Shown: positions 20,517 through 59,520 of the stretch, piece after piece
Position numbering within the stretch: the stretch's first letter is position 1
How the letters are laid out: every line of letters starts with the position of its first letter
Origin: a virus
Lineage: Duplodnaviria > Heunggongvirae > Uroviricota > Caudoviricetes
Direction: 5' to 3' (one strand)
IMG/VR virus record: IMGVR_UViG_2571042445_000002
Length of the DNA stretch: 64,000 nucleotides
Position numbers and translations under genes: made by a program
The notes under the pieces: generated by a model
The model's input: the letters and a program-made list of their open reading frames with translations, nothing else
Told to the model about the DNA's origin: nothing
The model's database searches: none

Positions 20517-21014
20517 ATGAAAAAAGCAATATTAGCGACTATTGTTTGTGCATTTGCATTATCAGGATGCGCTCCGGTTCAGACATACAACAAGCCTCAG
20601 CAAGTAAAACAGTTTGTTAAACGCCCAGCATTCCCTGTAGAGGAATATCAGGCATTGCCGAAAAAAGGCACAGGTAAGGTTAAGGGGGAATTATTTGGAG
20701 TAACTCGCGGAGGGGATGTGAAGATTGGTGCTGGCTCCAATATCATACTGCGTCCGTATACTTCATATATCAAAAATACCCCCAAAATTGATTACGACAC
20801 TCAGACCTTAGAAATAATCGACGGCAGGGTTGCGGAATATGACAGAACTGTCCTGACTGATGCTCAAGGCAAATTTGAGTTCGAAAACGTACCACCAGGC
20901 CAGTATGAAGTGATTGGTTCGTTCAGTTGGTATGCTGGAAATTTCCCGCAAATCGTTCTTCTGAACAAAATCATTACCGTTAAGAACGGTGATGTTATCC
21001 AGGTTCAACCATGA
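20517..21014 (+). CDS. lipoprotein with carboxypeptidase-regulatory-like beta domain
   Basis: MKKAILATIVCAFALSGC signal peptide and lipobox; DAQGKFEFENVPPGQYEV motif. Confidence 0.55.
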   Translation: MKKAILATIVCAFALSGCAPVQTYNKPQQVKQFVKRPAFPVEEYQALPKKGTGKVKGELFGVTRGGDVKIGAGSNIILRPYTSYIKNTPKIDYDTQTLEIIDGRVAEYDRTVLTDAQGKFEFENVPPGQYEVIGSFSWYAGNFPQIVLLNKIITVKNGDVIQVQP

Positions 21015-21126
21015 TCCCCTTTTGAGTAAGAACCTTCGGGGTGTGATTCTGCGAAATTAACACACTCCATACCCTCTCAAACCGTACCGCTTAAGGCGGA
21101 TTTAACGGTTTTGAGGGGGGCTTCCT

Positions 21127-38228: not shown

Positions 38229-39266
38229 TTACCAGAGTTTTGCCGCGTACATCGTTTGTGTGAATGTGTACCCATAGCGTTCTTCAACGCTTTTACCGTA
38301 TTTTTTCCTGGCTTCAGTAAGGCGGATGCCTGTCAGGTCATCGCCGGAGGCAATCATAACTTCCAGTAGTTCCAGGTCCATTTTATCCAGCCTTGCCATT
38401 GCATCTTTAGCCTCTTGAATTTTCCGGCTAACGATCTGGTGTATGGCTGGATCGGCTTCGGCCAGCATTTTATCTGATTTGTTTTTTAAACTCTGATTGC
38501 GGATATCAATGTTTCTCAGGATATATGACTTCACGACGTAGCTTGGCTGCTGCTTTTCCAGATCACGAACCCGATAAAGGTCAAATTCGCCGAGAAGTCC
38601 GCACGGAAGCGGTTTAATGCCAGTGTAAATGGTAAGGGTGCGGCGCTCACCAACGTTGTTAACAACGGGAATCTCTGTGTTTGCTTTTTTTGCAAAGATC
38701 AGCGCACCGTGCGTACCCACTCTGAAGCGTGAAAGTCCATTGTTGCCCTCAATATTGGTGGTAATCACCACATCGGTATAACCTTCTTTTCTTGCGCGGT
38801 ATACCTCGCCCTCACGTTCAGCGGCGAAGAATCTGCGTTCTTCTTCAAGCGCACCGACAACCTGTGAAAATATCCTGTTTTTCATGCTTTTCTTTATAGT
38901 TTTATCGTATTTTTTCAACAGGTCTTCGCGCGTAAATGTTCTCGTTGTGGTTGCGCTTTGCATAACGATATGCGTACTCTGATTAGTATCCTCAACAATG
39001 AATGGGATCGGTAAATAAACCGACTCAACAATGTTTGAGGCTTTGTCATCATCCTTGCGACACAGATCAACAAAGGCTTTCCATTCGGCTATGCATTTTT
39101 CAGCTTCTTCTAATACAGCCGGATCATGTGTTAATGCAACATGGCGAAATTCCTCGCCAACATAACTGGTATCATGGAAAACAGAGTTTGCGACCACCAG
39201 CTCTTTCCACCGTTCAGCGGTTTGCAGGAACCGTTTGTACTCATTCTCGATCGACTTCTTACTCAT
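38229..39266 (-). CDS. candidate master repressor (C1 position); function unproven
   Basis: 345 aa from the internal Met (MSKKSIENEY); convergent with pacB as P1 c1 is; operator motifs in its own 5' region. Confidence 0.3.
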   Translation of the reverse strand: MSKKSIENEYKRFLQTAERWKELVVANSVFHDTSYVGEEFRHVALTHDPAVLEEAEKCIAEWKAFVDLCRKDDDKASNIVESVYLPIPFIVEDTNQSTHIVMQSATTTRTFTREDLLKKYDKTIKKSMKNRIFSQVVGALEEERRFFAAEREGEVYRARKEGYTDVVITTNIEGNNGLSRFRVGTHGALIFAKKANTEIPVVNNVGERRTLTIYTGIKPLPCGLLGEFDLYRVRDLEKQQPSYVVKSYILRNIDIRNQSLKNKSDKMLAEADPAIHQIVSRKIQEAKDAMARLDKMDLELLEVMIASGDDLTGIRLTEARKKYGKSVEERYGYTFTQTMYAAKLW

Positions 39267-39279
39267 TATTCCTACTCGA

Positions 39280-39296
39280 TTTAGTTTTCTAACATA
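39280..39296. promoter_or_regulatory. operator-like motif in the candidate repressor promoter
   Basis: TTTAGTTTTCTAACATA about 15 bp upstream of the proposed start. Confidence 0.5.
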
Positions 39297-39366
39297 AAAG
39301 TCCTGTGACAAATTTATGCCGAATAACAAGGTGAGTAAAGGATAAAACCGCTTTTTTTTGATTGTT

Positions 39367-39383
39367 CCTATTAGAAAATGTAA
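39367..39383. promoter_or_regulatory. operator-like motif
   Basis: CCTATTAGAAAATGTAA. Confidence 0.45.
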
Positions 39384-39462
39384 CCAGGAGCGGCTACCGC
39401 ATGGCTGACGGATTTGCGAAGTGATCTGGTCGGTGTTTTTTTTTGGGAAAAAGTCCCGATTT

Positions 39463-39496
39463 CTAACTTTAAATAATTGGCATTATTTAAAGTTAG
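39463..39496. other. lox-like recombination site (13-8-13)
   Basis: CTAACTTTAAATA-ATTGGCAT-TATTTAAAGTTAG; perfect 13-bp inverted arms, asymmetric 8-bp spacer, 150 bp upstream of the Cre-like gene. Confidence 0.65.
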
Positions 39497-39647
39497 GCTA
39501 TAATCTCCAGTAAACAGGCAGTATTGACAAGGATGAAAAATCATGCCTCGAATCAAAGGCTTGAATTTTGAAAATTAACTTATAACTACCCTGTCAGTTT
39601 TCTATTTTTCACGTAGCGTTATCTGTATATAGAGGTTTAATAGTTTC

Positions 39648-40676
39648 ATGGGTGAACTAGTTATCTCCGGCGGTTCTGGTGGTTTTCTGCGCGATATTGG
39701 CACCGAATACCAGGAAGCTGCAAAAAACTTTATGCAGTTCATGAACGACCAGGGAGCTTATGCCCCAAATACACTTCGTGATCTCCGTCTGGTGTTTCAT
39801 TCCTGGGCGCGGTGGTGTAACTCGCGCCAGCGCCCCTGGTTCCCGATTACGCCGGAAATGGCCCGCGAGTATCTTCTCCAGTTGCATGAGGCCGATCTGG
39901 CTTCGACCACCATTGATAAGCACTATGCCATGCTTAACATGCTGCTTTCGCAATGTGGCCTCCCGCCGCTGTCGGACGATAAAAGTGTGTCTCTGGCCAT
40001 GCGGCGCATCCGGCGCGAAGCGGCAACGGAAAAAGGCGAGCGAACAGGCCAGGCTATACCGTTGCGGTGGGATGATCTGAAATTGCTCGACGTGTTGCTG
40101 TCCCGTTCCGAGCGGCTGGTGGACCTGCGCAATCGGGCGTTTCTCTTCGTGGCATACAATACCCTGATGCGTATGTCAGAAATCTCGCGCATCCGCGTCG
40201 GAGATCTGGACCAAACAGGTGACACTGTAACGCTGCATATTTCACACACGAAGACCATCACGACCGCCGCCGGACTTGATAAGGTGCTTTCTCGTTACAC
40301 TACCGCCGTACTGAACGACTGGCTGGAGGTGTCCGGACTTCGAGAACATCCGGACGCGGTGCTATTCCCGCCAATACACCGCAGTAATAAGGCCAGAATC
40401 ACGACAACGCCCCTTACTGCACCTGCAATGGAGAAAATATTCAGCGATGCCTGGGGGTTGCTGAACAAACGAGATGCCACGCCGAACAAGGGAAGATACC
40501 GGACGTGGACAGGCCATAGTGCGCGTGTTGGTGCGGCAATTGATATGGCTGAGAAACAGGTGTCAATGGTCGAGATCATGCAGGAAGGCACATGGAAAAA
40601 GCCCGAAACACTTATGCGATATTTGCGCCGTAGCGGGGCATCCGTTGGTGCAAATAGTCGCCTGATGGATTCATAA
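39648..40676 (+). CDS. cre: Cre-family tyrosine recombinase
   Basis: 342 aa; aligns along its length to P1 Cre as I recall it, including NTLMRMSEISRIRVGDL, WTGHSARVGAAIDMA, GTW and MRYLR (catalytic Arg, His-x-x-Arg, Trp, Tyr). Confidence 0.8.
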   Translation: MGELVISGGSGGFLRDIGTEYQEAAKNFMQFMNDQGAYAPNTLRDLRLVFHSWARWCNSRQRPWFPITPEMAREYLLQLHEADLASTTIDKHYAMLNMLLSQCGLPPLSDDKSVSLAMRRIRREAATEKGERTGQAIPLRWDDLKLLDVLLSRSERLVDLRNRAFLFVAYNTLMRMSEISRIRVGDLDQTGDTVTLHISHTKTITTAAGLDKVLSRYTTAVLNDWLEVSGLREHPDAVLFPPIHRSNKARITTTPLTAPAMEKIFSDAWGLLNKRDATPNKGRYRTWTGHSARVGAAIDMAEKQVSMVEIMQEGTWKKPETLMRYLRRSGASVGANSRLMDS

Positions 40677-44408: not shown

Positions 44409-45971
44409 ATGAAAATGACAAGTATTCAACAACGTGCAGAGCTTCATCGCCAGATCTGGCAAATTGCTAACGATGTCAGGGGGTCAGTCGATGGATGGGA
44501 TTTTAAGCAATACGTTCTGGGCGCACTTTTCTACCGTTTTATCAGCGAAAATTTTTCCAGCTATATTGAAGCCGGTGATGACAGTATCTGTTATGCGAAA
44601 CTGGATGACAGCGTAATTACTGATGACATTAAAGACGATGCCATCAAAACTAAAGGCTACTTCATCTACCCCAGTCAGCTTTTCTGCAACGTAGCTGCGA
44701 AAGCAAATACCAATGACAGACTGAATGCGGATTTAAACAGCATCTTCGTTGCTATCGAAAGTTCTGCTTACGGTTACCCTTCAGAAGCTGACATCAAAGG
44801 TTTGTTTGCTGATTTCGATACTACCAGTAACCGCCTGGGTAACACCGTTAAAGATAAAAATGCCCGCCTGGCTGCGGTTCTGAAAGGGGTTGAAGGGCTA
44901 AAACTTGGTGACTTCCACGAACATCAGATTGACCTGTTCGGTGACGCCTATGAGTTCCTGATTTCTAACTATGCGGCGAATGCTGGTAAGTCAGGCGGCG
45001 AGTTCTTTACACCGCAGCACGTCTCTAAGCTGATTGCACAACTGGCTATGCACGGGCAGACCCACGTTAACAAAATCTACGACCCGGCAGCAGGTTCCGG
45101 TTCGCTGTTGTTGCAAGCTAAAAAACAGTTTGATGACCATATCATCGAAGAAGGTTTTTTTGGTCAGGAAATCAACCATACGACCTATAACCTGGCGCGT
45201 ATGAACATGTTTTTGCACAACATCAACTACGACAAGTTTGATATCAAGCTGGGCAATACGCTGACTGAACCGCACTTCAGAGATGAAAAACCGTTTGATG
45301 CCATCGTTTCTAACCCGCCGTATTCGGTGAAATGGATTGGCAGCGATGACCCGACGCTGATTAACGATGAACGTTTTGCCCCGGCTGGCGTTCTGGCCCC
45401 CAAATCCAAAGCTGACTTTGCGTTTGTATTACATGCACTGAACTATCTTTCTGCCAAAGGTCGTGCTGCGATTGTCTGCTTCCCAGGCATTTTTTACCGT
45501 GGCGGCGCGGAGCAGAAAATCCGTCAGTATCTGGTTGATAATAACTATGTCGAAACCGTGATTTCACTGGCACCGAACCTGTTCTTTGGCACCACCATTG
45601 CCGTAAACATTCTGGTGTTGTCTAAACATAAAACAGATACAAAAGTTCAGTTTATTGATGCCAGCGAACTGTTCAAAAAAGAGACTAACAACAATATCCT
45701 GACCGATGCCCATATCGAACAGATTATGCAGGTATTTGCCAGCAAGGAAGATGTTGCTCATCTGGCGAAATCTGTTGCGTTTGAGACTGTTGTCGCGAAT
45801 GACTATAACCTGTCGGTGAGCAGCTATGTGGAAGCGAAAGATAATCGCGAAATTATCGATATCGCTGAGCTGAATGCGGAACTGAAAACCACGGTCAGCA
45901 AAATCGACCAGTTGCGCAAAGATATTGATGCGATTGTGGCTGAAATTGAAGGCTGCGAGGTGCAGAAATGA
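44409..45971 (+). CDS. hsdM: Type I restriction-modification methyltransferase subunit
   Basis: 520 aa; SAM motif [10 protein letters not shown] and catalytic SNPPYSVKW. Confidence 0.85.
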
Positions 45972-47254
45972 GCGAGTTGAGTTATCTGGAAAAATTGCTG
46001 GATGGGGTTGAGGTTAAGTGGTTGCCATTGGGGAACGTCGCTGAAATTTATGGTGGCCTAACAGGAAAGAGTAAATCTGATTTTGAGAACGGTAATGCCA
46101 GATATGTTTCATACAAAAAAATATTTGGTTATTTAGATGTGAATGATTACCCTACTGATTATGTATATATTAGTGAGGGAGAAAGACAAAATAAAGTAAG
46201 ATATGGGGATGTTTTATTTACTGGCTCATCTGAAATTGCTGATGAAGCAGGCATGTCCTCCGCCGTTACAGTACACTTCGATGAATCAGTGTATTTAAAC
46301 AGCTTTTCTTTTGGTATCAGATTCAGTAACAGCATAAAAATCAAACCGGAGTTCGCAAAATACCTTTTTCGAACCCATTTCATGCGCTCTGAAATAGCAA
46401 AAACAGCTAGTGGTGTAACACGCTTTAATATTTCAAAATCAAGATTTAAAAAAATACTGGTTCCTATCATTTGTCCTAATGATCCAGAAAAATCCCTTGC
46501 CATCCAGTCTGAAATCGTTCGGATTCTGGATAAATTTACTGAGCTTACAGCTGAGCTTACAGCTGAGCTTACAGCTGAGCTTACCATGCGTAAAAAACAG
46601 TACAACTACTATCTTGACCAGTCGCTAAGTTTTAAAGAGGGTGAGGTCGAGTTGAAAACGTTGGGAGAGATGGGGACACTTATAAGAGGCAAACGCTTTG
46701 TGAAATCCGACATAATTCCCAAGGGAGTACCGTGTATTCACTACGGTGAAATGTATACCCATTACCGCATCTGGGCGGATAAAGCAAAATCGTATATCTC
46801 TGTTGAATTAGCGTCCAAGTTAAGAAAAGCCTCATGCGGAGATGTTGTTTTTGTCTCTGCGGGTGAAACAATTGCAGATATTGGTCGTGGAACAGCCTGG
46901 TTAGGCGATGAAGATGTTGTTATTCATGACGCATGTTTTTTCTATAAAAGTTCATTGAACCCCAAGTATGTGGCCTACTTCTCAAGAACAAATTTCTTCC
47001 ACGATCAGATTAAAAAATCGATCTCTTCGGGGAAAATTTCTGCCATCAATGCCAAAGGCTTTGAAAAAGTGATTATTCCAGTTCCTTCACCAGAAGAACA
47101 AGCACGCATCGTTGCTTTCTTGGACAAATTCGACACATTGACAAGCTCCATCACCGAAGGCTTACCCCGTGAAATAGAACTACGCCAGAAGCAGTACGAG
47201 TACTATCGTGATTTACTGTTCAGTTTCCCAAAACCTGAAACTGTCAGTAATTAA
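45968..47254 (+). CDS. hsdS: Type I restriction-modification specificity subunit
   Basis: 428 aa; two AT-rich target-recognition domains around a central conserved region with TAEL repeats; ATGA overlap with hsdM. Confidence 0.8.
46541..46585 (+). repeat. 12-bp tandem repeat (gagcttacagct, 3.75 copies) encoding (TAEL)n in HsdS
   Basis: direct read of the sequence; protein [22 protein letters not shown]. Confidence 0.9.
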
Positions 47255-47375
47255 TTGACCATTGCTACCGACCGGGCCACCTTAACACCCGGTCAGTATA
47301 TAGACTATTTTTTACACGCTGGAAGTCACCATTAACGCCCTTCCGGCCCTTGCCAGACGGCACAAAGGATGCGCT

Positions 47376-50300
47376 ATGACTCATCAAACACACACCATTG
47401 CTGAATCCAATAACTTTATCGTTCTTGATAAATACATCAAAGCTGAGCAAACAGGCGACAGCTATCAGAGCGAATCGGACCTGGAACGTGAACTGATTCA
47501 GGACCTGCAAAATCAGGGCTATGAATTTATATCCGTAAAATCACAGTCAGCGATGCTGGCCAACGTTCGGGAACAGCTTCAGAGCCTCAATGGTGTGATG
47601 TTTAATGACAGAGAGTGGCGGCGTTTCACGGAGCAGTATCTGGACAACCCGAGCGATGGCATTCTGGATAAGACCCGTAAAATCCATATCGACTATATTT
47701 GCGACTTTATTTTTGATGACGGGCGTCTTGAAAATATCTATCTGATAGATAAAAAGAATCTCATGCGCAATAAGGTGCAGATTATCCAGCAGTTTGAACA
47801 GACGGGTTCTCATGCTAACCGTTATGACGTCACGATCCTGGTTAATGGTTTACCGCTGGTGCAAATCGAACTAAAAAAACGCGGGGTGGCGATTCGTGAG
47901 GCTTTCAACCAGATACATCGTTACAGTAAAGAGAGTTTTAACAGCGAAAATTCCCTGTTTAAGTATCTGCAACTGTTTGTCATTTCTAACGGCACCGATA
48001 CCCGTTACTTTGCCAACACCACAAAGCGCGATAAAAACAGTTTTGACTTCACAATGAACTGGGCGAAATCAGACAACACGCTGATTAAAGACCTCAAAGA
48101 CTTTACCGCTACCTTTTTCCAGAAACATACTCTGCTGAATGTTCTGGTGAACTACAGCGTTTTTGACAGTAGTCAGACGCTACTGGTGATGCGACCGTAC
48201 CAGATTGCAGCTACCGAACGAATTTTATGGAAAATCAACAGTTCCTATAAAGCGAAAAACTGGTCCACTCCCGAAAGTGGTGGCTTTATCTGGCACACCA
48301 CCGGTTCCGGTAAAACACTGACCAGCTTTAAAGCCGCGCGTCTGGCAACAGAACTGGACTTTATTGATAAAGTCTTCTTCGTGGTCGACAGAAAAGACCT
48401 CGATTACCAGACGATGAAGGAATATCAGCGTTTTTCGCCAGACAGCGTCAACGGCTCGGAAAATACCGCAGGACTTAAACGAAATCTGGATAAGGACGAT
48501 AACAAAATTATCGTCACCACTATTCAGAAACTTAATAACCTGATGAAAGCAGAAAGCGACCTGCCTGTATACAATCAGCAAGTGGTGTTTATATTTGATG
48601 AATGTCACCGCAGCCAGTTTGGAGAAGCACAGAAAAACCTGAAGAAGAAATTCAAACGCTATTATCAGTTTGGTTTTACCGGCACACCTATTTTCCCGGA
48701 AAACGCCTTAGGCTCAGAAACAACCGCCAGCGTATTTGGCCGTGAATTGCATTCATATGTTATTACCGATGCGATTCGTGACGAAAAAGTGCTCAAATTC
48801 AAGGTGGACTACAACGATGTGCGGCCACAGTTTAAGTCTTTAGAGACAGAAACTGACGAGAAAAAACTGAGTGCGGCTGAAAATCAGCAGGCGTTTCTTC
48901 ATCCCATGCGTATTCAGGAAATCACGCAATATATCCTGAACAACTTCCGCCAGAAAACCCACCGTACTTTCCCTGGTTCCAAAGGTTTTAATGCCATGCT
49001 GGCAGTAAGCAGCGTGGATGCTGCAAAAGCCTATTATGCGACGTTTAAACGGTTACAAGAGGAAGCCGCTAATAAATCGGCTACCTATAAACCGCTGCGT
49101 ATTGCGACAATCTTCTCCTTTGCCGCCAATGAAGAACAAAATGCCATTGGTGAAATTTCCGATGAAACTTTTGATACCAGCGCAATGGACAGCAGTGCTA
49201 AAGAGTTTCTGGACGCTGCAATTCGTGAATATAACAGCCATTTTAAAACTAACTTTAGCACCGACAGTAACGGTTTTCAGAACTACTATCGTGATTTAGC
49301 CCAGCGGGTTAAAAATCAGGATATCGATCTGCTAATTGTCGTGGGGATGTTCTTAACCGGCTTCGATGCTCCAACATTGAACACGCTATTCGTCGATAAA
49401 AACTTACGTTATCACGGCCTGATGCAGGCATTTTCCCGCACTAACCGCATTTATGACGCCACTAAAACCTTCGGTAATATCGTCACTTTCCGGGATCTGG
49501 AACGCTCAACTATTGATGCCATAACGCTGTTTGGTGACAAAAACACCAAAAATGTGGTGTTAGAAAAGAGTTATACAGAGTATATGGAAGGCTTTACTGA
49601 TGCTGCTACAGGTGAAGCTAAACGCGGCTTCATGACAGTAGTTTCAGAACTGGAACAACGGTTCCCTGACCCTACCAGTATTGAAAGTGAAAAAGAGAAG
49701 AAAGACTTCGTTAAACTGTTTGGCGAATACCTGCGTGCCGAGAACATCCTGCAAAACTATGATGAATTTGCCACGCTAAAAGCCCTGCAACAAATCGATC
49801 TTAGCGATCCTGTTGCGGTAGAAAAATTCAAAGCAGAACATTATGTGGATGATGAAAAGTTCGCTGAATTGCAAACAATTCGTCTCCCTGCTGATCGCAA
49901 GATTCAGGATTATCGTTCTGCCTATAACGATATTCGCGACTGGCAGCGCCGTGAGAAAGAAGCTGAGAAAAAAGAGAAATCAACCACTGACTGGGATGAC
50001 GTAGTTTTTGAGGTCGATTTGCTGAAGTCTCAGGAAATAAACCTGGATTATATCCTTGGACTGATTTTCGAACACAACAGACAAAATAAAGGCAAGGGCG
50101 AAATGATCGAAGAGGTCAAACGCTTAATTCGTTCAAGTCTAGGGAACCGTGCTAAAGAGGGCCTGGTGGTCGATTTTATTCAGCAAACGAACCTGGATGA
50201 TTTACCGGACAAAGCCAGCATCATTGACGCATTCTTTACGTTTGCTCAACGCGAACAGAAACGTGAAGCAGAAGCATTGATAAAAGAAGAAAATCTCAAT

Positions 50301-50492
50301 GAAGAGGCGGCGAAACGCTATATTCGCACATCTTTAAAACGCGAATACGCCACCGAAAATGGTACAGGATTAAATGATACATTACCAAAACTTAGTCCGT
50401 TAAATCCGCAATATAAAACGAAAAAACAGACGGTTTTCCAGAAAATCGTCTCGTTTATTGAGAAGTTTAAAGGCGTAGGCGGAAAAATATAG
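47376..50492 (+). CDS. hsdR: Type I restriction-modification endonuclease subunit
   Basis: 1038 aa; Walker [15 protein letters not shown]-box [12 protein letters not shown]2 helicase layout. Confidence 0.85.
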
Positions 50493-50523
50493 CCCAATTC
50501 GTGTTTTTCTTGCGGGTTCTTAA

Positions 50524-50907
50524 TTAAACCCGCAAGAGATCGTGGGATTCTAAATAGCTAATATACTCCCCTTCCCCATCCGAGATAACACCTTCGTAAT
50601 ACTCGCGCTGCTCGTTGAGTCTGGATTTTGCAGCTTCCAGTTGTTTTGTTAGCTCTGCAATACGGCAAACATCGTTGATACGCCTTTCCTCTAATGCGTT
50701 GTTCTCATTCAGTAGTGCCAAAGCAACCTTTGGATTAAAGGCAGCAATAAATTCAGCGTTGTTTTTCAGAACGTGTTGCGCAATGGCCTGACTACTTAGT
50801 CGGACCTCATAACCACGTGCGCCACGGTGTGGTTTATATGAGTCCCAGTCTCCCCACGTTGCTTTCACTGCCGCCTCACGCAGTACCTGATAGTCAATCT
50901 TGCTCAC
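50524..50907 (-). CDS. Ead/Ea22-like prophage early protein (paralogue family)
   Basis: 127 aa; N-terminal 65 aa near-identical to the gene at 55782-56273; GTG start after GGAGGCAACCA. Confidence 0.4.
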   Translation of the reverse strand: MSKIDYQVLREAAVKATWGDWDSYKPHRGARGYEVRLSSQAIAQHVLKNNAEFIAAFNPKVALALLNENNALEERRINDVCRIAELTKQLEAAKSRLNEQREYYEGVISDGEGEYISYLESHDLLRV

Positions 50908-51352
50908 TGGTTGCCTCCTTATTAATCAGTTTATACAGGTGCACCACAGTCACAGAGAGTGCATCCATCGCTCGTTTATCCAGGCGCGGGGCCAGAGCAA
51001 CCAGTTCATTTATTGCAATCTGAATACGCTGCTCCGCCGCCAGCGTCGCGCGATTGCTCTCCAGTTCTGCAATTCGGCACATGGCATCAATATTTGTGTC
51101 TTCCAGGCGCTTAATTTCGCCCAGGAGTGCCAGCGCAACTTTTGGTGGGATAGCCGCGATATAACGGGCATTAGCACCAGCATTCCTTTGCCCATCAATG
51201 CCAGGCCAGTCAATAAAGTATCCGCAATGCCTACCCTCAGACGTGCGCGCAGGATAAATGCCGTTATGACCCGGCAAAATATATGCTACCCATTCATCTT
51301 GCGTTGCCTGTTCCGCCGCCTCGCGCAGTTCTTGATAGTTAATTTTGCTCAC
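50894..51352 (-). CDS. Ead/Ea22-like prophage early protein (paralogue family)
   Basis: 152 aa; MSKINYQELREAAE N-terminus related to neighbours. Confidence 0.4.
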   Translation of the reverse strand: MSKINYQELREAAEQATQDEWVAYILPGHNGIYPARTSEGRHCGYFIDWPGIDGQRNAGANARYIAAIPPKVALALLGEIKRLEDTNIDAMCRIAELESNRATLAAEQRIQIAINELVALAPRLDKRAMDALSVTVVHLYKLINKEATSEQD

Positions 51353-51605
51353 TGGTTGCCTCCGCTTCCCACGTTTTCAGACTTTCACCACAGAACGGGC
51401 AAAATGAAACTCGAATAGGCGATTTAGAAAATTCACCAGACCGCAGCATGATCAGGTCTTGTGAATTAATTAATGCATGGTTATAAATTCTGTATTTCAG
51501 AAGCCCTTTTCGCGTCGTGTATTCAGCGTCATACTCCAGCGATTGTGCCAAAGCCGCGCACGGTTCTATCTTGTTGCCATTAATTTGGCATTTTGACTCA
51601 CTCAC
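51339..51605 (-). CDS. hypothetical protein with C-terminal Cys motif
   Basis: 88 aa, CPFCG motif; same conserved initiation region. Confidence 0.3.
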   Translation of the reverse strand: MSESKCQINGNKIEPCAALAQSLEYDAEYTTRKGLLKYRIYNHALINSQDLIMLRSGEFSKSPIRVSFCPFCGESLKTWEAEATSEQN

Positions 51606-52188
51606 TGGTTGCCCCCTGAATACGCTTAAACTCGATTACCCATACCCACGGGTTAGATAGCCAGTTATCCTGCCCGTAAATACTGCGCCAGATATCACCA
51701 AAACCAACGCGATAAACAGCTTCAGGTGGCGTAATCTTGTACGTCGCCGGAGTTGCGCCTTCTGCTTTAGCATCTGCCTCGCTCATGTCATGCAGCCGTT
51801 CCACACGCACGTCGGTAATTTCCAGAAGAATGCGCGATGCCCAGCGCGGCATGTGAATTGATGGCGTCCACTTTTCTGATACTGGTTTATTACAAACATC
51901 GACCGGAACCCGGTGCGTTTGTTCTGTCCAGGAGTTACGCACGCTTGCGCGATAAACCAGCGTTGCGACGTCCGTCGCTTTGCCATGTACCCGGTAGGTT
52001 TCGCGAACCCAAATACGATCGCCCGGTTGACCATATGGACAATGCTTGGCAAGCAACTCTGCGGCAACTGCTCGTCCATAGAATTTTTCTTCAACAATCC
52101 TGCGAGTCTGTGTTTTATTCCCGCCAAGAATTGCCCGGACCATCTCATCGTTAAAAATCATCCCGCGTTCTTTCATTTTTTGATCCAC
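51598..52188 (-). CDS. ASCH-like domain prophage protein (putative)
   Basis: 196 aa; N-terminal MIFNDEMVRAILGGNKTQTRR...GDRIWVRE resembles ASCH/PUA-like domains. Confidence 0.35.
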   Translation of the reverse strand: MDQKMKERGMIFNDEMVRAILGGNKTQTRRIVEEKFYGRAVAAELLAKHCPYGQPGDRIWVRETYRVHGKATDVATLVYRASVRNSWTEQTHRVPVDVCNKPVSEKWTPSIHMPRWASRILLEITDVRVERLHDMSEADAKAEGATPATYKITPPEAVYRVGFGDIWRSIYGQDNWLSNPWVWVIEFKRIQGATSE

Positions 52189-52192
52189 TCCA

Positions 52193-53188
52193 TCAGTTAT
52201 TGAACGTGATCACTCCGCGCTCGATGGCGAAGTCGAAAAGCTGGTTGGCGGCTACGTAAAGGCGTATGCCATGTGCTTTTTCCCATGCCCGGACATCGTT
52301 TTCTGCGCTTCTGGCGCATTCATCGCAAAGAGGAACGGCCCAGCGATCGTGTTCGTTTAACGAGCGGGCGCGGTACATGAACGGGTGATTAACTTTGCCT
52401 CCGCATCCGATGCACGGACGAGAAATCACAAACCGGAGATAAGCCGGGCTTTTACCGAGAACCGCTTTTGGTCGGCGCATATACAGCAGGCCGGAATCCT
52501 CATCTACAGACAGGTTGACGATCTGCTCTGCGGTTATGTCCACCAGCTCACGGGTGCTGTGCTCCCAGGTGATATCCGATTCTTTCAGTGTGCCGGTAGG
52601 GATTTCCTGTTTTGGCTGACAAAATGCAATGCGACCGGCTTCATCTGGCAGCTCGTCTTTCAGATTCCGGCGAATGGCCCAAAAAGTGAGTTCAACCATG
52701 CTCAGATCGCGTTCTGGCGGTAGTTTTAACTCGCTCGCAGCCCAGTTCATAACCCAGTTGGCACGATTCAGGGATAACTGGTCGTCCAGCTTGCTGTACC
52801 CCTTCATCATGTATTCCGCATCATGCTTCCAGCACAGGCGAACGGCAGAGCCGTTATAGAAATGAGTGGTTAGCTGGTGGCTGCAATCGCGCTTATCGTG
52901 CGCCTGGCAATCGTGGATATTGGAACTTACCCAATGAACAAGCGAATCTTCACCGCCTAATGCGTTAAATACGCGCTCGCTTTGAAAAAATGCTTTCAGA
53001 GACTGGTTGGCAACCAGCGAATAGTTCAGATCCACTACGCCATCTGGCGTGTTTTCAGCCTGTTCGCGCGGAAGTGGAGAGATAATGAAACGGCGACCTG
53101 CGCCAATGTAGTTGCTGGTGGGCTTGTCTACCGGAAAGACAGCCACACCAGCTCCGTTTACGAAATGAGGTGTGATTATTGCACTCAT
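52193..53188 (-). CDS. DUF968-like Cys-rich prophage protein (putative)
   Basis: 331 aa; paired Cys motifs CIGCGG...CDECA near the C-terminus. Confidence 0.35.
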   Translation of the reverse strand: MSAIITPHFVNGAGVAVFPVDKPTSNYIGAGRRFIISPLPREQAENTPDGVVDLNYSLVANQSLKAFFQSERVFNALGGEDSLVHWVSSNIHDCQAHDKRDCSHQLTTHFYNGSAVRLCWKHDAEYMMKGYSKLDDQLSLNRANWVMNWAASELKLPPERDLSMVELTFWAIRRNLKDELPDEAGRIAFCQPKQEIPTGTLKESDITWEHSTRELVDITAEQIVNLSVDEDSGLLYMRRPKAVLGKSPAYLRFVISRPCIGCGGKVNHPFMYRARSLNEHDRWAVPLCDECARSAENDVRAWEKAHGIRLYVAANQLFDFAIERGVITFNN

Positions 53189-53230
53189 AATGTATACCGA
53201 CTCTGTTTTGTTCCGAGCGGTAAAATAATC

Positions 53231-53263
53231 TGTTAGAAAATTAAAATCAATATTCTAATATCA
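53231..53263. promoter_or_regulatory. operator-like inverted pair
   Basis: TGTTAGAAAATTAAAA and TATTCTAATATCA upstream of the minus-strand DUF968 gene. Confidence 0.5.
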
Positions 53264-53292
53264 TTTTGAGTGCATAAACGATGTGTTCAGGA

Positions 53293-54009
53293 TTACGACT
53301 GCCCTCCCTTCACCTGCTTTAGCGTCAGATTTCCGCAAAAAACCGCACCAGTGTCTATGTAGTGCTGGTTCCAGAAAGATTTCGGGCTGCTTACTGGCGT
53401 ATGCCCGAAAATAAAGCTATCTGCACCAGTGATCATTCCACCAACACCATCAACCGCGTCATAAAATCGCTCACGCCGCCAGGTAACATTGAGATCGCTA
53501 ACAGGTTTACCAAACTGGTATTCGTTATCAGGATAGTCGGCATGGGCTATAACGATAGTTTCATGCCCGGTGTTCAACTCAATGATATAGGGCAAACGTC
53601 TTACCAGCTCCACCAGCGCCCTGGCTAATATTTCCCGATCAGCGTCCAGCATGAAGAACCATTGACCACCATTCATTAGCCAGTTATTCACGTTGCCTGC
53701 GGGACTTAACGCATCGATCATTAATCGCTCGTGGTTTCCCATAACCGACCGAAACCAGGGCATCTGCAATAGCTCCAGGCATTCAACATTTTCGGTGCCG
53801 CGATCGATAAGGTCGCCAACCGATATCAGTAAATCCTGTGTCGGGTCAAAGTCCACACGATGAAGTTCAGACATCAATCTGGTGTAGCAACCATGCAGAT
53901 CACCAACAACCCATATGTTTCTGTAGCCTGAACCATCAATACGGGTATATAAATTCACTTCATGCAGCGCCTGGGTCATGCGGCAACCTTCTCCCGCAGC
54001 CAGATACAA
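53293..54009 (-). CDS. Ser/Thr protein phosphatase (PPP-family metallophosphatase)
   Basis: 238 aa; motifs [20 protein letters not shown]. Confidence 0.7.
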
Positions 54010-54287
54010 ACCGGGCCATCTTCAGTGTCATGAATAGAGCCAACAAACCATCCTTCGCCCTCTGGTCGCTCTGGTTCCCAGGCGGCAATATCGGGACCAT
54101 CTGCGTCCAGATTAAAATGATCTTCATCCATACTGCGAATAGTCCACTGAAGATTATTTTCCTTCATCCAGGCGTCAAATTCCTCAGTGGATATATATTC
54201 ACGACCTGCGCAAAACTTTTCATACTCCGGATGTGTCCAGCAGCCATATTCATCACGTTCTACCGGCATTTCTTTAATGATGCTCAC
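53976..54287 (-). CDS. hypothetical protein
   Basis: 103-aa acidic ORF. Confidence 0.3.
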
Positions 54288-54508
54288 TCTTCATCCTCCA
54301 AGTCGGCAACGGCCTCCATCACATCAGAACCGCGAATAACCTCAAAAGCACGGCAGGCCATTTCAAACACCTGTTGTTCTTGCGGATGCGGTGACTCCCA
54401 ATACTTAAAACCAGGTCGATGCTCGTAACCCAACATGGAATAAAAATCGCCAGCAAGTTCAATCGCGGCATCAACAAGTTCGCGATTTGTCATCGTCTGT
54501 TCTGTCAT
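54284..54508 (-). CDS. hypothetical protein
   Basis: 74-aa acidic ORF, coupled. Confidence 0.3.
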   Translation of the reverse strand: MTEQTMTNRELVDAAIELAGDFYSMLGYEHRPGFKYWESPHPQEQQVFEMACRAFEVIRGSDVMEAVADLEDEE

Positions 54509-54780
54509 TTTGTTTTCTCCTGTCTGAACATCACTATCATCAGGTCGCCTTTTGTCGCTATCCTGGCTGTTGTACCTGGTTCAATGCGGCTAAGCTCAAA
54601 TGCGTCATAGAACGCTTCTAATGCCTTCTGGCGTAGTTCCTGTTTGCGCCGTTTTTTCCACTGTTTCAGGAAAATGGAACCCAGCCAACGCCATGTACGG
54701 GACATGATGTAAAGCCAACCGAGAAGTGCCAGACCGGTATTTAGGAGCGTATCGATCGTTATTGTCGTGTCGATATTCAC
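54505..54780 (-). CDS. small membrane protein
   Basis: 91 aa, N-terminal TM helix then basic region. Confidence 0.3.
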   Translation of the reverse strand: MNIDTTITIDTLLNTGLALLGWLYIMSRTWRWLGSIFLKQWKKRRKQELRQKALEAFYDAFELSRIEPGTTARIATKGDLMIVMFRQEKTK

Positions 54781-55460
54781 TGGCTGCCTCCTTTGCGAAG
54801 CTGTTCAGCAATACTTACGCATATCTCTGCGCCTCTAATCAGCCCCGGAACGTTCTTGTTTGGCCCAACTTCACCATCGACAAAATCAATCATCGCGTTA
54901 CGAGCCATATCCACGCCCTGCGCACGTACTTCAGCCAGGAAAGCATCGGTGGCTGGCGTTTCCCGTGAACGGTAAGACCAAACAATGTCGTCTGTTTCAC
55001 TGGGTTCTTCATGAGAGCAATTTGGGCAGACAGCAGTACAACCAGCATGATCTTCTATGAGCATCTTCAGCCACGAGTTCTCCTCCGCCAGCGTCACGCG
55101 ACTGGCCTCCAGTTCTGCTACGCGCTGTTTTGCAGCATCCAGTTCAATCGACAATTTTTCCAACTGCTCTTTATGCTTTTTATATTCCTGATATGCGTGC
55201 CAAGACTGACCTTTGCGCACACTATCCGTGATATCAGTAATCTGTTCTGGTGTTAGCGTGGTCAGTGGCTGTGCTGGGAAAATCAGCACTTTCCCGGCAT
55301 CCCAATCAAAACCCACCTGAATTGACTGAACCTCAACTGATGGTGTTGAACCGATGCGACCAGGCGAATGAACAACGATCGTTACATCCATATCGCGACG
55401 ATGGCTGTGGTTGTTGGACAAAATACGATTCACCAACTCCGAGAATTTGGAAAATTTCAT
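54777..55460 (-). CDS. Ea22-like coiled-coil protein
   Basis: start at internal Met (MKFSKFSEL) overlapping upstream stop (ATGA); C-terminal half aligns with the paralogue at 56270-56944. Confidence 0.4.
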
Positions 55461-55813
55461 GCTGATTCCCTTTGCTCTTCCTGGATAATGTTGTTGCAAT
55501 CTTTCACGCACTCGTTGCAGATGAAAACGTTGTCCCCGGCAATTAACTTTTTAACGGTGTGCTGGGATTTGTTGCAGAAGCTGCAATAAAGCGTTGGACT
55601 GGCTGATACGGATGGTGCGCCAGATGTCAGCCGCGCGATGTCGTTCTTGCGACGCAATATCACACGGCTGCACTCGACCAGCATCTCCGGGGATATATCC
55701 TCCTCCGTGGCGAGCGCCTCCAGACGTTCGAGCAAGCGAAATACTTTTTCCTGGGTGATTGCAGAATGCGATGTGGTCATCTCACTCTCCTTTGAGGCGA
55801 ATGCCTGTTGCAA
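55457..55813 (-). CDS. small protein with C-terminal ClpX-type zinc-binding domain
   Basis: 118 aa; [39 protein letters not shown] closely matches the ClpX N-terminal C4 zinc-binding domain as I recall it. Confidence 0.55.
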
Positions 55814-56273
55814 TGCTGTTTATGATGCTGTCAGTGCATGGGGTAGAAAGCTGGGCATCTCCAGCAATTTTCATGACCTCAACATCTGCATATCGAATAC
55901 CGAGGTGTATCAGACCGGCTATGCCTGACTTAAGCCGAGCATTTTCCATAAATAGAACCTTTGCCCGCTGTTTTTCTGCTTCAAGCTCAACACGCAGTTT
56001 CCCTACCGTAAGCGCAATATCCTCGTTCTCCTGGTCGCGGCGTTTTATGTATTGCTGGTTTCTTTCCCGTTCATCCAGTAGTGCCAAAGCAACCTTTGGA
56101 TTAAAGGCAGCAATAAATTCAGCGTTGTTTTTCAGAACGTGTTGCGCAATGGCCTGACTACTTAGTCGGACCTCATAACCACGTGTGCCACGGTGTGGTT
56201 TATATGAGTCCCAGTCTCCCCACGTTGCTTTTTCTGCCGCTTCACGCAGTGCCTGATAGTCAATCTTGCTCAC
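55782..56273 (-). CDS. Ead/Ea22-like prophage early protein (paralogue family)
   Basis: 163 aa; 5' about 200 nt near-identical to 50700-50907. Confidence 0.4.
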
Positions 56274-56944
56274 TGGTTGCCTCCTTTGCGAAGCTGGGCA
56301 GCGAACCTATCAGCTGCATCCGCGCAAGCAGAAGCAACGGAATCAAAAAATGGATCATCTCCTGTATCGCGCATCGTCAAAGCGAATGCCTCCACCCCTT
56401 GTGCCTGTATTTCTACAAGGGATGCCTTAGATGTAGTGCTTTTCGCCTCGCCTAATTCGTTATGAGCGATGTTCGCTATACATGCGATGTCTATATCTGG
56501 ATGATTAATTGGGCAATGGCTAAGAATTGCCTCAAGTGCTGCTTTTTTGCTTTGGCATTCCGCCACCAGCGCCCCGCAATTGCTTTCCAGCTCTGCAATA
56601 CACTTTTTAGCGGCCTCCAGCTCAACACGCAGATTCTCAAGCGTTAGAGCCTTCTCCACGTTCTCGTCCAGCAGTTCAATCACATCAGGATCGCTACCAT
56701 CAACTACTGATATGCGCGAATTTTTGTAATGCTCGTCAGCATAAGTTCGTCCAGTTTTGAAGCATCCGTCATCCTCCATGCCGGAACAGGCATAAACAAC
56801 ATGTGATCCAGATATGCGCTGCATTGACATTTCCTCGCCACAAACAGGGCATTTAGGCGCTGGTTTCGGTGAATAACGTTCACGTAACGGATAGTAAAGC
56901 TCGATCTCCGCCAGTTGCTCTGGCGTTAAACCTTCAGACTTCAT
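56270..56944 (-). CDS. Ea22-like coiled-coil protein
   Basis: 224 aa; C-terminus ends with the same AEQLRKGG(S/N)Q motif as the 54777 gene. Confidence 0.4.
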   Translation of the reverse strand: MKSEGLTPEQLAEIELYYPLRERYSPKPAPKCPVCGEEMSMQRISGSHVVYACSGMEDDGCFKTGRTYADEHYKNSRISVVDGSDPDVIELLDENVEKALTLENLRVELEAAKKCIAELESNCGALVAECQSKKAALEAILSHCPINHPDIDIACIANIAHNELGEAKSTTSKASLVEIQAQGVEAFALTMRDTGDDPFFDSVASACADAADRFAAQLRKGGNQ

Positions 56945-57251
56945 GTACTCTCCTTTCGAAATAAACGTACTGATTAATCATTCCCAGGGGCATTTCGAGT
57001 TTTTCTGCGATCTCACGGCGGGGAACACCACACTGATGAAGCTGCCGCGCCAGTTCTATATCGCTCTGCCGGTATTTGGCTGACTGGTGAAAGTCTCCTT
57101 TCAGAATCATGCTGATCCGCAGTTGCCGCGCTTTAGTCCTGACAGCACCACCGGTACGCCCGATCAGTCTCCCAATACCCTCGACTGTCATAGTCCCGGC
57201 GCACTGGCGGAGTATCATGATTTCTGCCCTTCCCCATCCCCGCCAGCTCAC
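56934..57251 (-). CDS. HTH-containing small regulatory protein (putative)
   Basis: 105 aa with HTH-like segment GVPRREIAEKLEMP. Confidence 0.3.
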   Translation of the reverse strand: MSWRGWGRAEIMILRQCAGTMTVEGIGRLIGRTGGAVRTKARQLRISMILKGDFHQSAKYRQSDIELARQLHQCGVPRREIAEKLEMPLGMINQYVYFERRVHEV

Positions 57252-57886
57252 GCAGAACTCCTTCTAACCAAAAGAACGCCATCTTCAGAAACAATGTTGC
57301 AGGACTTCAGGTAATTCATTGCCACTTTCGGTAATGGATTCTTTGGATCGGCGTTTGCCAGGGATTTCGATAACCTCAAGATAAATTTGATCATTACCTT
57401 CTGACGGAGCTTGTGCTCATGAGATGCAGACAGGTAATAGGAAATGGTATGGGCTAAACGCTCACGAAGCTGTTCTGTGCCGTGATATACAGCAGCGATA
57501 TCACGCAGTGCATTGACCAGTTCCCGGTAAATATGCGGAGCAACCTGGCATTCAATGTTGGTTGGTGACTCATAAATTACATTCAGCCCCAGCTTTTGAG
57601 CCAGCTCGTGCTCTGCACGAGCGCCAACTGATTCCTCCCACCCCTTGAGCAAATAGACCGCATTAGCCGAACGCAACATTGCAAGGCAAATATCCATGTA
57701 TTCACTCTGGCAGAGGCCAGCAGGTAACAGCGCCGGATTCAGAACAATATGCCCTACCTCCATCAGCTCTTTTGCTTTCGAAAAAAACGCTGTGCGGTTG
57801 TAGTCGGGATAACCAGTCATCGGACCCGCGATGTAAATTTTCATAATGCGTTTTGACATCAAAGTTTCCCCAGGAACGTTACGCAA
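57248..57886 (-). CDS. DUF4406-like (nucleoside deoxyribosyltransferase-fold) protein
   Basis: 212 aa; N-terminal YIAGPMTG...VLNP...LKGWEESVGARAEHE matches the DUF4406 pattern. Confidence 0.4.
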   Translation of the reverse strand: MRNVPGETLMSKRIMKIYIAGPMTGYPDYNRTAFFSKAKELMEVGHIVLNPALLPAGLCQSEYMDICLAMLRSANAVYLLKGWEESVGARAEHELAQKLGLNVIYESPTNIECQVAPHIYRELVNALRDIAAVYHGTEQLRERLAHTISYYLSASHEHKLRQKVMIKFILRLSKSLANADPKNPLPKVAMNYLKSCNIVSEDGVLLVRRSSA

Positions 57887-58053
57887 AAGTTGATGAGAGC
57901 AAAGAGTTCAATGCCCAGCTCAAACAACGCCAGGACAGTGAAAAACAGGGCATATAGCAACCCAATTTCTGTACCGGATTGCTGGTGGATTGCACTTATT
58001 GCGACAAGCATCATGACCTCCTGATATAGCGTCTGAAAAAAAAGTATCTTCAT
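57859..58053 (-). CDS. small membrane protein
   Basis: 64 aa, two hydrophobic helices. Confidence 0.25.
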   Translation of the reverse strand: MKILFFQTLYQEVMMLVAISAIHQQSGTEIGLLYALFFTVLALFELGIELFALINFCVTFLGKL

Positions 58054-58055
58054 TT

Positions 58056-58089
58056 TGTGTTAGAAAATCAATTTTGATTTTCTAACACA
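58056..58089. promoter_or_regulatory. perfect palindromic operator
   Basis: TGTGTTAGAAAATCAATTTTGATTTTCTAACACA between divergent genes. Confidence 0.6.
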
Positions 58090-58132
58090 TTTGATCAACC
58101 ATAGCGGCGATGTAGACAAACCGGGTATTTCT

Positions 58133-58708
58133 ATGAAGCAAAGCTATTGGGAGAAACAGACACAAAAAGCCCTGCAAAAACTGGCTGATCCGAAATGGCG
58201 GGAGGAACAAAGGGCAAAGCGTCTTCAGCAAGCTCAACGCCAGCAGCAGCGTGCGCGAGAAAAAGCCGCATCGCCTGAATATCGGCAAAAGAAAATTGAA
58301 AAAGCGAAGCAATATGAACAGCGAAGAAAAGAGAAGGCCGCTTCTGCTCCTGTCAAAAAAACTCGCGCGTCACGCGGCCTGAAAGGCAGAACACTCACAG
58401 CAGATGAGCGCCGGATACAAACTGCCATCGGTGCTCTCCCCTGCATTGCCTGCCATATGCACGGACAGCATAGCCCTGTGGTATCCCTGCACCACATCTT
58501 CGGGAGAACAGCAGAGAACGCGCATAAATACGTCCTCCCTTTGTGTAAATGGCACCATCAACACGCAGCGCCAGCAGAGATCCGCGAGCAATACCCCTGG
58601 TTGGTTCCTGTTCATGCTGATGGAAAAATAGGCGGCAAAGCAGATTTCAGGCGGCACAATGCTGATGAAATGACGTTGTATCAGATGGTGACTGAATTAA
58701 TAAATTAA
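58133..58708 (+). CDS. HNH-type nuclease, Ref-like (putative)
   Basis: basic Q/R/K-rich N-terminus then Cys/His core LPCIACHMHG...LHHIFGR...CKWHHQH; ATG at 58133 chosen because the upstream TTG abuts the operator. Confidence 0.4.
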   Translation: MKQSYWEKQTQKALQKLADPKWREEQRAKRLQQAQRQQQRAREKAASPEYRQKKIEKAKQYEQRRKEKAASAPVKKTRASRGLKGRTLTADERRIQTAIGALPCIACHMHGQHSPVVSLHHIFGRTAENAHKYVLPLCKWHHQHAAPAEIREQYPWLVPVHADGKIGGKADFRRHNADEMTLYQMVTELIN

Positions 58709-58720
58709 TTTTCTAACATT
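58703..58720. promoter_or_regulatory. operator-like motif
   Basis: AATTAATTTTCTAACATT overlapping the ref-like stop. Confidence 0.5.
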
Positions 58721-59369
58721 TTAAGTTGAATTGTGAGATTCGCCGTTGTACATTCACAACCGATTGGTACACCGGTCAACTTTTTGAGACAAACCGTTTG
58801 GTTTTTCGTATGATTGCCGCCGCCATACCAATGGCGGTGCAATATAGGTGGCTGAAAAGCCCCCGTTGACTCACGGTGTTCCAACCTTTATTGCGCCGCC
58901 ACCAGACCGTGGAACAGTCGATGGCGGCTCCGAAAGCAAGGAGTCACTACACTATGAACAGCTACTGTCTTTTCCCATCACTCGTTGTCCGCCACTCACG
59001 CGATAATCTGCATTCTTTACTCGCGCTGGGGGTGTCAAAATGACCGTTCGCTACCTCAACTTTCAAATCCAGAACATCACTGGCGGTTGCTATGACTGGT
59101 TTGTCACTCTCGGAAAAGAAGTGATCACCGGAAAGCTGGATGAAGTGAAAGCTAAAGCAATGGCCTACGCCTGCAAGCAAGCCCAAAAGAAGAAAAGAAA
59201 AGCATAAGAAAACACACAGTTGCGCCCTGGCATTATCGTGGGGTATATTTCTACGGCACCTTAGAAAAACGGGTGCCGGGATTGGAACCCCGGATAATGT
59301 CAAAGGCGACACAGACGCCGAACGCGTCTTTTTTTGTGTCATGCCATCGCACAGCCATACTTAGCGTTT

Positions 59370-59520
59370 AGCTCAGAGATCAATGGTAGTGCTGGCTGGG
59401 CTGCCGAAAGGCAGGCCGGTTCCCTTTGACGCCGGTAGTTCCAACCCAGTCAGTGCTACCGCCATTGAGATTGGAACCTCACGCGGTAGCTCCTTAACTT
59501 AGTCAAAGGAGGCTGCCAAT
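59370..59520 (+). ncRNA. candidate c4-like antisense RNA / structured leader (copy 2)
   Basis: hairpins (ctgcc-GAAA-ggcag) upstream of the second icd-like gene. Confidence 0.25.

Follow-up and report, generated by a model that had tools for sequence, protein, structure and literature searches.

An accessory gene cluster with putative C1 operators in a D6-like phage-plasmid of the P1 family

The gene cluster studied here, at positions 50524–58053 of a 64 000-nucleotide (nt) stretch of viral DNA (IMG/VR record IMGVR_UViG_2571042445_000002; the whole stretch is hereafter called the window), was found to be an already annotated, standard part of D6-type genomes within the P1 family, having a conserved frame together with mosaic Ea22-type cassettes that are shared with lambdoid phages. 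Considering its gene content, synteny, motif statistics, positional homology and conservation, all of which could be observed directly, we hold it about 80% probable that the region represents the early accessory operons of the P1 family in their D6-lineage form, organized as two tandem leftward polycistronic units. The original prediction had described the cluster as a gene set of lambdoid type inside a P1-like backbone, bracketed by operator motifs and under the same immunity control; most of what it observed held up, its interpretation only in part.

RESULTS

Backbone and conservation of the cluster

The P1-like backbone proved correct and could be specified further. When the whole window was compared with the genome of phage D6 using blastn, the two were colinear in reverse orientation at 72–96% identity, with the colinearity broken only at about 44.3–51.3 kb of the window. 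P1-type gene names (c1, lpa, pacAB, repL, darB, sit, ref, phd/doc and cre) occur throughout the D6 record, and the backbone is therefore D6-like, belonging to a distant branch of the P1 family. Gene and operator positions in D6 (NC_050154 / MF356679) and in P1 were here, as in all of the following, taken from the GenBank annotations. Using megablast with the cluster itself, D6 was the best phage match (66% covered, 91.5% identity) and Escherichia coli plasmid NZ_CP085065.1 the closest plasmid (94% covered, 98.6% identity), while more than 1000 plasmid records matched some part of the region. Judged by these alignments, the window is a D6-like phage-plasmid that is a distant relative of P1.

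The same gene order was seen in five further elements. It starts with ref, an operator, orf88, the DUF4406 gene and a helix-turn-helix (HTH) gene, continues with variable Ea22 cassettes, the gene for a ClpX-type zinc-finger protein (ClpX-ZnF) and a variable gene, proceeds through DUF4752, two small open reading frames (ORFs), ppp, an internal operator and DUF968, and ends with a variable tail having PmgT-like, PAPS-reductase, Ea22 or DUF551 genes. Nine of the 16 genes, encoding the orf88 product, DUF4406, HTH, ClpX-ZnF and DUF4752 proteins, proteins of 74 and 103 amino acids (aa), Ppp and DUF968, were present in six of six D6-like elements at 67–100% aa identity. The head module was found in 111 PLSDB plasmids and the ppp–operator–DUF968 module in 109. 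With this core, its presence in D6 and these approximately 110 plasmids, the cluster is, for the D6 branch, a standard conserved part of P1-family genomes, which is what the original prediction had named as the outcome that would speak against it.

Gene content and anatomy

The boundaries given to the cluster were accurate: the last ORF ends with its stop at 50524, and no start for the first ORF lies further upstream than 58053. Seventeen genes had been claimed, but a seventeenth was looked for between these positions and not found, leaving 16 co-directional minus-strand genes between 58011 and 50524. All of them matched PHROG families, with E values from 1e-26 to 1e-106. After refinement of the start codons the genes overlapped or abutted each other (−14 to +4 nt), with a 104-nt gap at 53189–53292 as the sole exception, and this anatomy is that of translationally coupled polycistronic units.

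The genes upstream of that gap begin with one for a 50-aa hydrophobic protein (57859–58011; homologue of D6 orf88; phrog_8890, residues 15–64), for which the start at 58011, situated behind an AGGAGG Shine–Dalgarno sequence, was preferred over the start at 58053 of a 64-aa ORF. Following it are the genes for a nucleoside 2-deoxyribosyltransferase-like DUF4406 protein (57248–57859; D6 orf89; Pfam and PHROG), a 105-aa putative DNA-binding HTH protein (56934–57251; D6 orf90; phrog_323), the 224-aa Ead/Ea22-like paralogue d (56270–56944; D6 orf92), the 163-aa paralogue c (55782–56273), which is a variable cassette, the 107-aa ClpX C4 zinc-finger protein (55457–55780; D6 orf93; Pfam, PHROG and NCBIfam) and a 227-aa Ea22-related protein, again a variable cassette (54777–55460; phrog_368/6026). 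The DUF4752 gene (54505–54780; D6 orf94; Pfam and PHROG) has a homologue named eaf in the SPN1S record, and is followed by genes for the 74-aa (54284–54508; D6 orf95; phrog_4132) and 103-aa (53976–54287; D6 orf96; phrog_1372) proteins and for the 228-aa Ppp, a NinI-like Ser/Thr phosphatase (53293–53979). Beyond the gap are the genes for the 331-aa DUF968 protein (52193–53188; Pfam and PHROG), a 196-aa PmgT/Upf86.8-like protein (51598–52188; PHROG), an 88-aa protein similar to Upf87.4 of P7 (51339–51605; phrog_4030), the 152-aa Ead/Ea22-like paralogue b, a variable cassette (50894–51352), and the 127-aa paralogue a (50524–50907); paralogues a–d were identified using both Pfam and PHROG.

Most of the family labels in the original prediction could be confirmed. 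Ead_Ea22 (PF13935) scored above the Pfam gathering score in four cluster proteins, paralogues a–d, and the 227-aa protein represents a fifth Ea22 relative through phrog_368 and a C-terminal domain shared with the 224-aa paralogue. The DUF968, DUF4406 and DUF4752 assignments reached 153, 119.3 and 144 bits, all above their gathering thresholds, and the phosphatase matched both PF00149 (Metallophos, 56.7 bits) and the NinI-like phosphatase family phrog_246 (E = 7e-106). The ClpX zinc finger (PF06689) was found in the 107-aa protein at 63.9 bits against a gathering score of 27, although this protein aligned only with the N-terminal zinc-finger part of the ClpX models and lacks the ATPase part; N-terminal ClpX matches were also the only ones obtained when scanning the cluster proteins against NCBIfam. 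The label that could not be confirmed was ASCH, since the 196-aa protein stayed below threshold with Pfam ASCH (PF04266), reaching 14.5 bits (E = 0.061) where the gathering score is 21.2, resembled an annotated ASCH protein weakly in an N-terminal motif (E = 0.17), and gave no match in NCBIfam or the Protein Data Bank (PDB). PDB sequence searches using this PmgT-like protein, the DUF4406 protein and Ea22 paralogue c returned no matches, and no tandem repeats were found when looked for.

Two side observations concern the core proteins. The DUF968/PdcB-like protein was 97–100% identical across the six D6-like elements, as compared to 67–93% for its neighbours, which suggests unusually strong constraint on the sequence or a recent sweep of the gene. 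Furthermore, matches to the DUF4406 and DUF968 proteins are adjacent in Vibrio phage VPBES (PV171465.1, approximately 39158–39981), and in Vibrio phage Strym (KX581099.3, approximately 20526–21521) the stretch matched by DUF968 carries the annotation ‘nucleoside 2-deoxyribosyltransferase’; these arrangements hint at a possible functional link between DUF4406 and DUF968, the genes of which are 4 kb apart in the window.

Operator motif and repressor

The operator motifs reported at 53231 and 58056 are real. The motif GTTAGAAAATTAA was found at 11 sites in the window allowing at most one mismatch, as compared to 0.12 expected from shuffled sequences, with the sites being at 17112, 18320, 29930, 31175, 34839, 39281, 40678, 53232, 58059, 58074 and 58705. 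Some of these sites are bivalent through a weaker partner in inverted orientation, at 31190, 34824 or 53246. Between the cluster on the minus strand and ref on the plus strand (58133–58708; RecA-dependent nuclease), the bivalent operator at 58056–58089 is a perfect 16 + 16 nt palindrome made of two GTTAGAAAATCAA half-sites with a 2-nt spacer, located about 45 nt upstream of both the ref ATG at 58133 and the first-gene start at 58011; its position is that of P1 Oref. The second one, at 53232–53258 within the gap between ppp and the DUF968 gene, has an exact half-site (53232–53244) and a degenerate inverted half-site (53246–53258) with the same 2-nt spacing. As one operator is thus at the promoter-proximal head of the cluster and the other is internal, with the end at 50524 unmarked, the cluster is headed and subdivided by operators and not, as had been stated, bracketed by them.

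A further copy (58705–58717) overlaps the 3′ end of ref upstream of an isrK-like/C4 RNA–icd–ant module, a position like that of P1 Omat, and yet another (39281–39293) is situated just upstream of the minus-strand gene for a C1-type repressor (38229–39266), which is 80% identical to D6 C1 and 21% to P1 C1. D6 carries the motif at the corresponding places. Copies precede c1 (by 27 nt), lpa, repL, icd and hrdC, one is found beside pmgS, and others lie between ref and orf88, at the ref 3′ end and between ppp and DUF968, where the counterpart of the internal operator has the D6 coordinates 80710/80725. The internal operator is kept in D6 and five plasmids, and both cluster operators were conserved in the six aligned D6-like elements even where the flanks in the ref/orf88 gap had strongly diverged. 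The P1 record has named C1 operators at like positions, namely Oc1 and Olpa, an Oref roughly 100 nt ahead of ref, and Omat, which overlaps the stop codon of that gene. We conclude that GTTAGAAAATTAA is very probably the D6-type C1 operator, with binding as such deduced from sequence, and that the same immunity control for the cluster is plausible, as based upon operator position and conservation. A literature search retrieved no description of D6-type operators, with the original D6 genome paper being outside its reach.

Could some other factor use the motif as its site, for example an activator of late genes, a nucleoid protein or the HTH protein that the cluster encodes? The motif is AT-rich, a small DNA-binding protein is encoded within the cluster itself (56934–57251), and the motif is unlike the P1 C1 operator consensus ATTGCTCTAATAAATTT, which had no matches in the window at up to three mismatches, so that the immunity specificity is not that of P1. 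The sites nevertheless precede c1, lpa, repL and C4 RNA and are present at either end of ref, which are the mapped C1 operator positions of P1. A late activator would be unexpected in front of lpa and c1, and no P1-type late-promoter −22 boxes were found in the cluster. That the window C1 is only 21% identical to P1 C1 explains a divergent site and fits with a related repressor having a different specificity. Another factor acting at these sites thereby appears improbable to us, and a D6-type C1 remains the preferred ligand.

Two additional observations can be made on this regulatory system. The D6-type and P1 operators share a TCTAA/TTAGA core, with the AT-rich flank on opposite sides, and together with the low identity between the two repressors this shift may reflect that repressor and operator have co-diverged. 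The window furthermore contains two immI-like modules, one at 18424–18630 with c4-a1b1 targets at 18424–18476 and one at 59256–59466 with an isrK-like RNA at 59256–59334, each being located downstream of an operator copy (18320 and 58705, respectively) and having a C4 antisense RNA as recognized by Rfam (RF01695; 18545–18630 and 59379–59466).

With relaxed matching, each palindrome contained a TTGATT −35 element in its right half, followed after 17 nt by a −10 element. The resulting candidate sigma-70 promoter for the first unit (58043–58071, minus strand) would use TTGATT at 58071–58066 and GATACT at 58048–58043, with TTGATC at 58098–58093 and CAAAAT at 58076–58071 on the same strand as an alternative, and the candidate at the internal operator (TTGATT at 53250–53245, TATTTT at 53227–53222) has the same geometry as that of the first unit.

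Homologues in P1 and P7

Several of the cluster products have close relatives in P1 and P7. The Ppp protein was 85% identical to P1 Ppp, the DUF968 protein was 38% identical to P1 PdcB over the full length, and the 196-aa protein was 43% identical to the first approximately 230 residues of P1 PmgT, while the genes for the 196-aa and 88-aa proteins together showed 89% DNA identity to upf86.8/upf87.4 of P7. In P1, the C1 operator Oppp is located upstream of pmgN-O-P-ppp-pmgQ, and OpmgT ahead of pmgT-U-V. In P7, Op(hea) precedes upf86.8, upf87.4, upf87.6 and upf88.3, the last of which is annotated as similar to P22 Ead, and an Ead-type gene in a C1-controlled unit has therefore already been recorded for the P1 family. 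Previous studies found P1 ppp, pmgT and pdcB to be non-essential in a genome-wide CRISPR interference screen (PMC10695390), used ppp and pdcB as conserved markers for polymerase chain reaction, listed the pmgT to humD segment as one of eight hyper-variable regions of P1-like phage-plasmids, and described JL22 as having pmgT replaced by a cluster apparently including an ea22-type gene, printed as ‘ra22’ (all PMC9603915).

Relation to lambdoid phages

The original prediction considered the gene set as typical for lambdoid prophages rather than P1. This was true in part, with several of the families being of the lambdoid ‘ea’ type: the Ea22 paralogues, DUF4752 and the 74-, 103- and 88-aa ORFs have family members in the ‘ea’ region, that leftward early segment which in lambdoid and P22-like phages separates repressor and integrase, and DUF4752 in tblastn belonged to a lambdoid/P22-like family at 47–65% identity. 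It did not hold for Ppp, PdcB and PmgT, having the P1 homologues described above. Full-length ClpX-ZnF homologues were found only in D6, one P1-like phage and P88, and those of DUF4406 mainly in actinophages and vibriophages, with lambdoid phages having practically none of either kind. The closest relatives of the DUF968 protein outside D6 are P1/P7 PdcB, with the lambdoid YdfU-type proteins being about 26% identical.

These data bear upon the possibility that a lambdoid early-left block was recently transplanted into a P1-like backbone, being foreign to the P1 family. In total 431 phage records, mostly of Stx/lambdoid phages, matched the cluster at 90–97% DNA identity; in the two lambdoid phages inspected the shared cassettes are located in the leftward early (PL) operon between repressor and integrase; and the D6 annotation cites homologues in phiV10, mEp213, ES18, SPN1S and 933W. 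However, outside D6 and P1-like phages no record ever covered more than 9% of the region, and most of the lambdoid matches were confined to an Ea22 N-terminal/boundary module of approximately 100–330 nt. The cluster has gene families and short cassettes in common with lambdoid phages without being a foreign block. With the frame kept in D6 and the PLSDB plasmids, P1 homologues of three products, an Ead-like gene under a C1 operator in P7, and ClpX-ZnF and DUF4406 not being lambdoid-typical, such a transplantation is largely refuted and very improbable.

Over about 166 nt, the N-terminal coding DNA of paralogue c was 94% identical to lambda ea22, and a junction sequence, GGAGGCAACCAGTGAG as read on the minus strand, was found at five gene boundaries in the window (50903–50924, 51348–51369, 51601–51622, 54776–54797 and 56269–56290). 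This sequence contains a Shine–Dalgarno sequence, a GTG start and an overlapping TGA stop, encodes the shared C-terminal residues of the upstream proteins (TSEQ / KGGxQ), and is the one annotated as ‘bsq3; boundary sequence’ in phage Sf6. In addition, the N-termini of Ea22 paralogues a and c are encoded by a 216-nt direct repeat that is 97% identical (50705–50920 and 56071–56286) with its copies 5.4 kb apart. The five junctions together with this repeat fit with a turnover of cassettes by homologous recombination. It can also be noted that recombination between the 216-nt copies would delete ppp, the DUF968 gene and nine other genes.

Neighbouring loci and distal end

A complete type IC (EcoR124-like) restriction-modification locus is located between phd/doc and the cluster (44409–50492; hsdM 44409–45971, hsdS 45968–47254, hsdR 47376–50492), where it replaces the pmgU-like/hot/humD block of D6. 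According to the P1 GenBank record, the phd-doc and pap/pmgT regions of P1 are 96–98% identical to the DNA on either side of the EcoDXXI and R124/3 hsd loci, which suggests that type IC systems have repeatedly settled at this insertion point. The distal end of the cluster at 50524 abuts the convergent hsdR, and a 7-bp GC-rich hairpin (GCGGGTT...AACCCGC; 50505–50532), 13 nt past the hsdR stop, extends across the stop codon of paralogue a, the last Ea22 gene. It has no U-run on either strand and may act as an RNA stabilizer or as a non-canonical bidirectional terminator.

Adjoining a restriction-modification system, and lying in a hyper-variable region as defence hotspots often do, the cluster could also be viewed as a moron-like island for lysogenic conversion or defence, expressed from the resident plasmid and not as an early lytic operon; that its promoters are candidates only would be compatible with this. 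However, no matches to PADLOC defence models were obtained among the 10 cluster proteins tested, the sole plausible promoters are buried in repressor-type operators, the equivalent operons of P1 and P7 are annotated as C1-controlled, and the genes are translationally coupled in long units instead of being separate morons. We consequently regard such an island as quite improbable, and favour the early accessory operons.

DISCUSSION

The organization that we propose would be as follows. A first unit of 11 genes, from 58011 to 53293, would comprise the genes for the small membrane peptide, the DUF4406 and HTH proteins, the Ea22 cassettes, ClpX-ZnF, DUF4752, the two small ORFs and Ppp, starting from a promoter buried in the palindromic operator and arranged back-to-back with ref. 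A second unit of five genes, from 53188 to 50524, would comprise those for the DUF968/PdcB-like, PmgT-like and Upf87.4-like proteins and two Ea22 cassettes, starting at the second, weaker bivalent operator in the sole intergenic gap. The D6-type C1 (38229–39266) would occupy both operators in the plasmid prophage, thereby silencing both units as well as ref, lpa, repL and the c4-icd-ant modules, and upon infection or induction both units would be expressed early. Repressor binding, promoters, timing and function are thus the predicted components of this scheme. Two reports describe Ea22 as pro-lysogenic in lambda (PMC7093339, PMC10834534), and the products of the cluster, presumably accessory and dispensable for plaque formation, probably tune host physiology or the lysis–lysogeny decision as shown for lambda Ea22, with the phosphatase, the ClpX N-domain look-alike and the nucleoside-transferase-like protein being further candidates for such a role. 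While the frame is conserved, the Ea22-type cassettes would turn over by recombination at a boundary sequence that is also used in the lambdoid PL ‘ea’ regions.

Some points weigh against this proposal. Binding of C1 to the cluster operators is something that we infer from sequence, and the internal operator in the window has one degenerate half-site with three mismatches. A strict sigma-70 scan found no promoter at the operators, where the operator-overlapping matches are weak (8/12 to consensus). No convincing terminator was found at the distal end, as a hairpin with a T-run at 50428–50451, promising by eye, folded no better than shuffled sequences (z = −0.75) and was rejected. The evidence for non-essentiality, finally, comes from the P1 homologues and may apply here by analogy.

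A wider interpretation, which we find doubtful although worth stating, would have the 13-bp (t)GTTAGAAAATTAA define a D6-type C1 regulon and the operon draw upon a cassette pool common with the lambdoid PL ‘ea’ regions, exchanged via the bsq3-type boundary, whereby ea genes would have been re-wired under P1-type immunity. The invariant non-lambdoid core, made up of the ClpX N-domain look-alike, DUF4406 and DUF968, could then be a phage-plasmid-specific module for host takeover or anti-defence.

The importance of these findings is small beyond that of a correct annotation, and they do not contradict current understanding. For the D6-type immunity regulon they do supply a working operator consensus together with a list of sites. 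The Ea22-type cassettes and boundary sequences common to phage-plasmid early operons and lambdoid PL regions also give one concrete route for the gene flow between phages and phage-plasmids that has already been described, and the conserved uncharacterized core (ClpX-ZnF, DUF4406 and DUF968) should be a reasonable target for functional studies.

As compared to D6, the counterpart of the cluster is the orf88–orf100 region (D6 76689–82723), which is likewise divergent from ref and ahead of hot/humD/phd-doc, and the two are alike in strand logic, both operator sites and the core genes, including those for Ea22 and Upf87.4-like proteins. They differ in that the window adds the Ea22 paralogue at 55782–56273, the 227-aa Ea22-related gene and the PmgT-like gene, has different distal Ea22 cassettes, lacks orf91 and orf101–109, and has the type IC hsdMSR genes next to the cluster in place of pmgU/hot/humD.

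The cluster resembles the P1 Oppp/OpmgT units and the P7 ‘hea’ operon in being composed of repressor-operator-headed units of small non-essential genes including ppp, with PmgT/Upf86.8, Upf87.4 and, in P7 only, an Ead-like gene in common, and the operator layout around ref parallels that of P1. In contrast, P1 encodes the DUF968 homologue PdcB elsewhere, the operator sequence differs, with the P1 consensus absent from the window and the repressor so distantly related, the cluster lacks pmgN-P, pmgQ and pap while pmgR/S are elsewhere in D6, and the cluster unit is fused next to ref and not next to gene 26.

With the lambdoid PL ‘ea’ region, as represented by lambda ea22, P22 ead/eaf and Sf6 gene 21 with bsq3, the cluster shares Ead/Ea22, DUF4752 and several small ORFs, the same boundary sequence at the junctions, a mosaic make-up and, presumably, early expression and non-essentiality. 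It differs in having no int/xis/exo context, being flanked instead by ref and hsdR in a plasmid prophage, and in being controlled, as we propose, through P1-type C1 operators and not by cI/N. In lambdoid genomes Ppp belongs to the nin region and DUF968 is represented by YdfU, which in the one record inspected has a RusA-like resolvase as its neighbour; both come from the other arm, and the ClpX-ZnF and DUF4406 genes set the cluster further apart from them.

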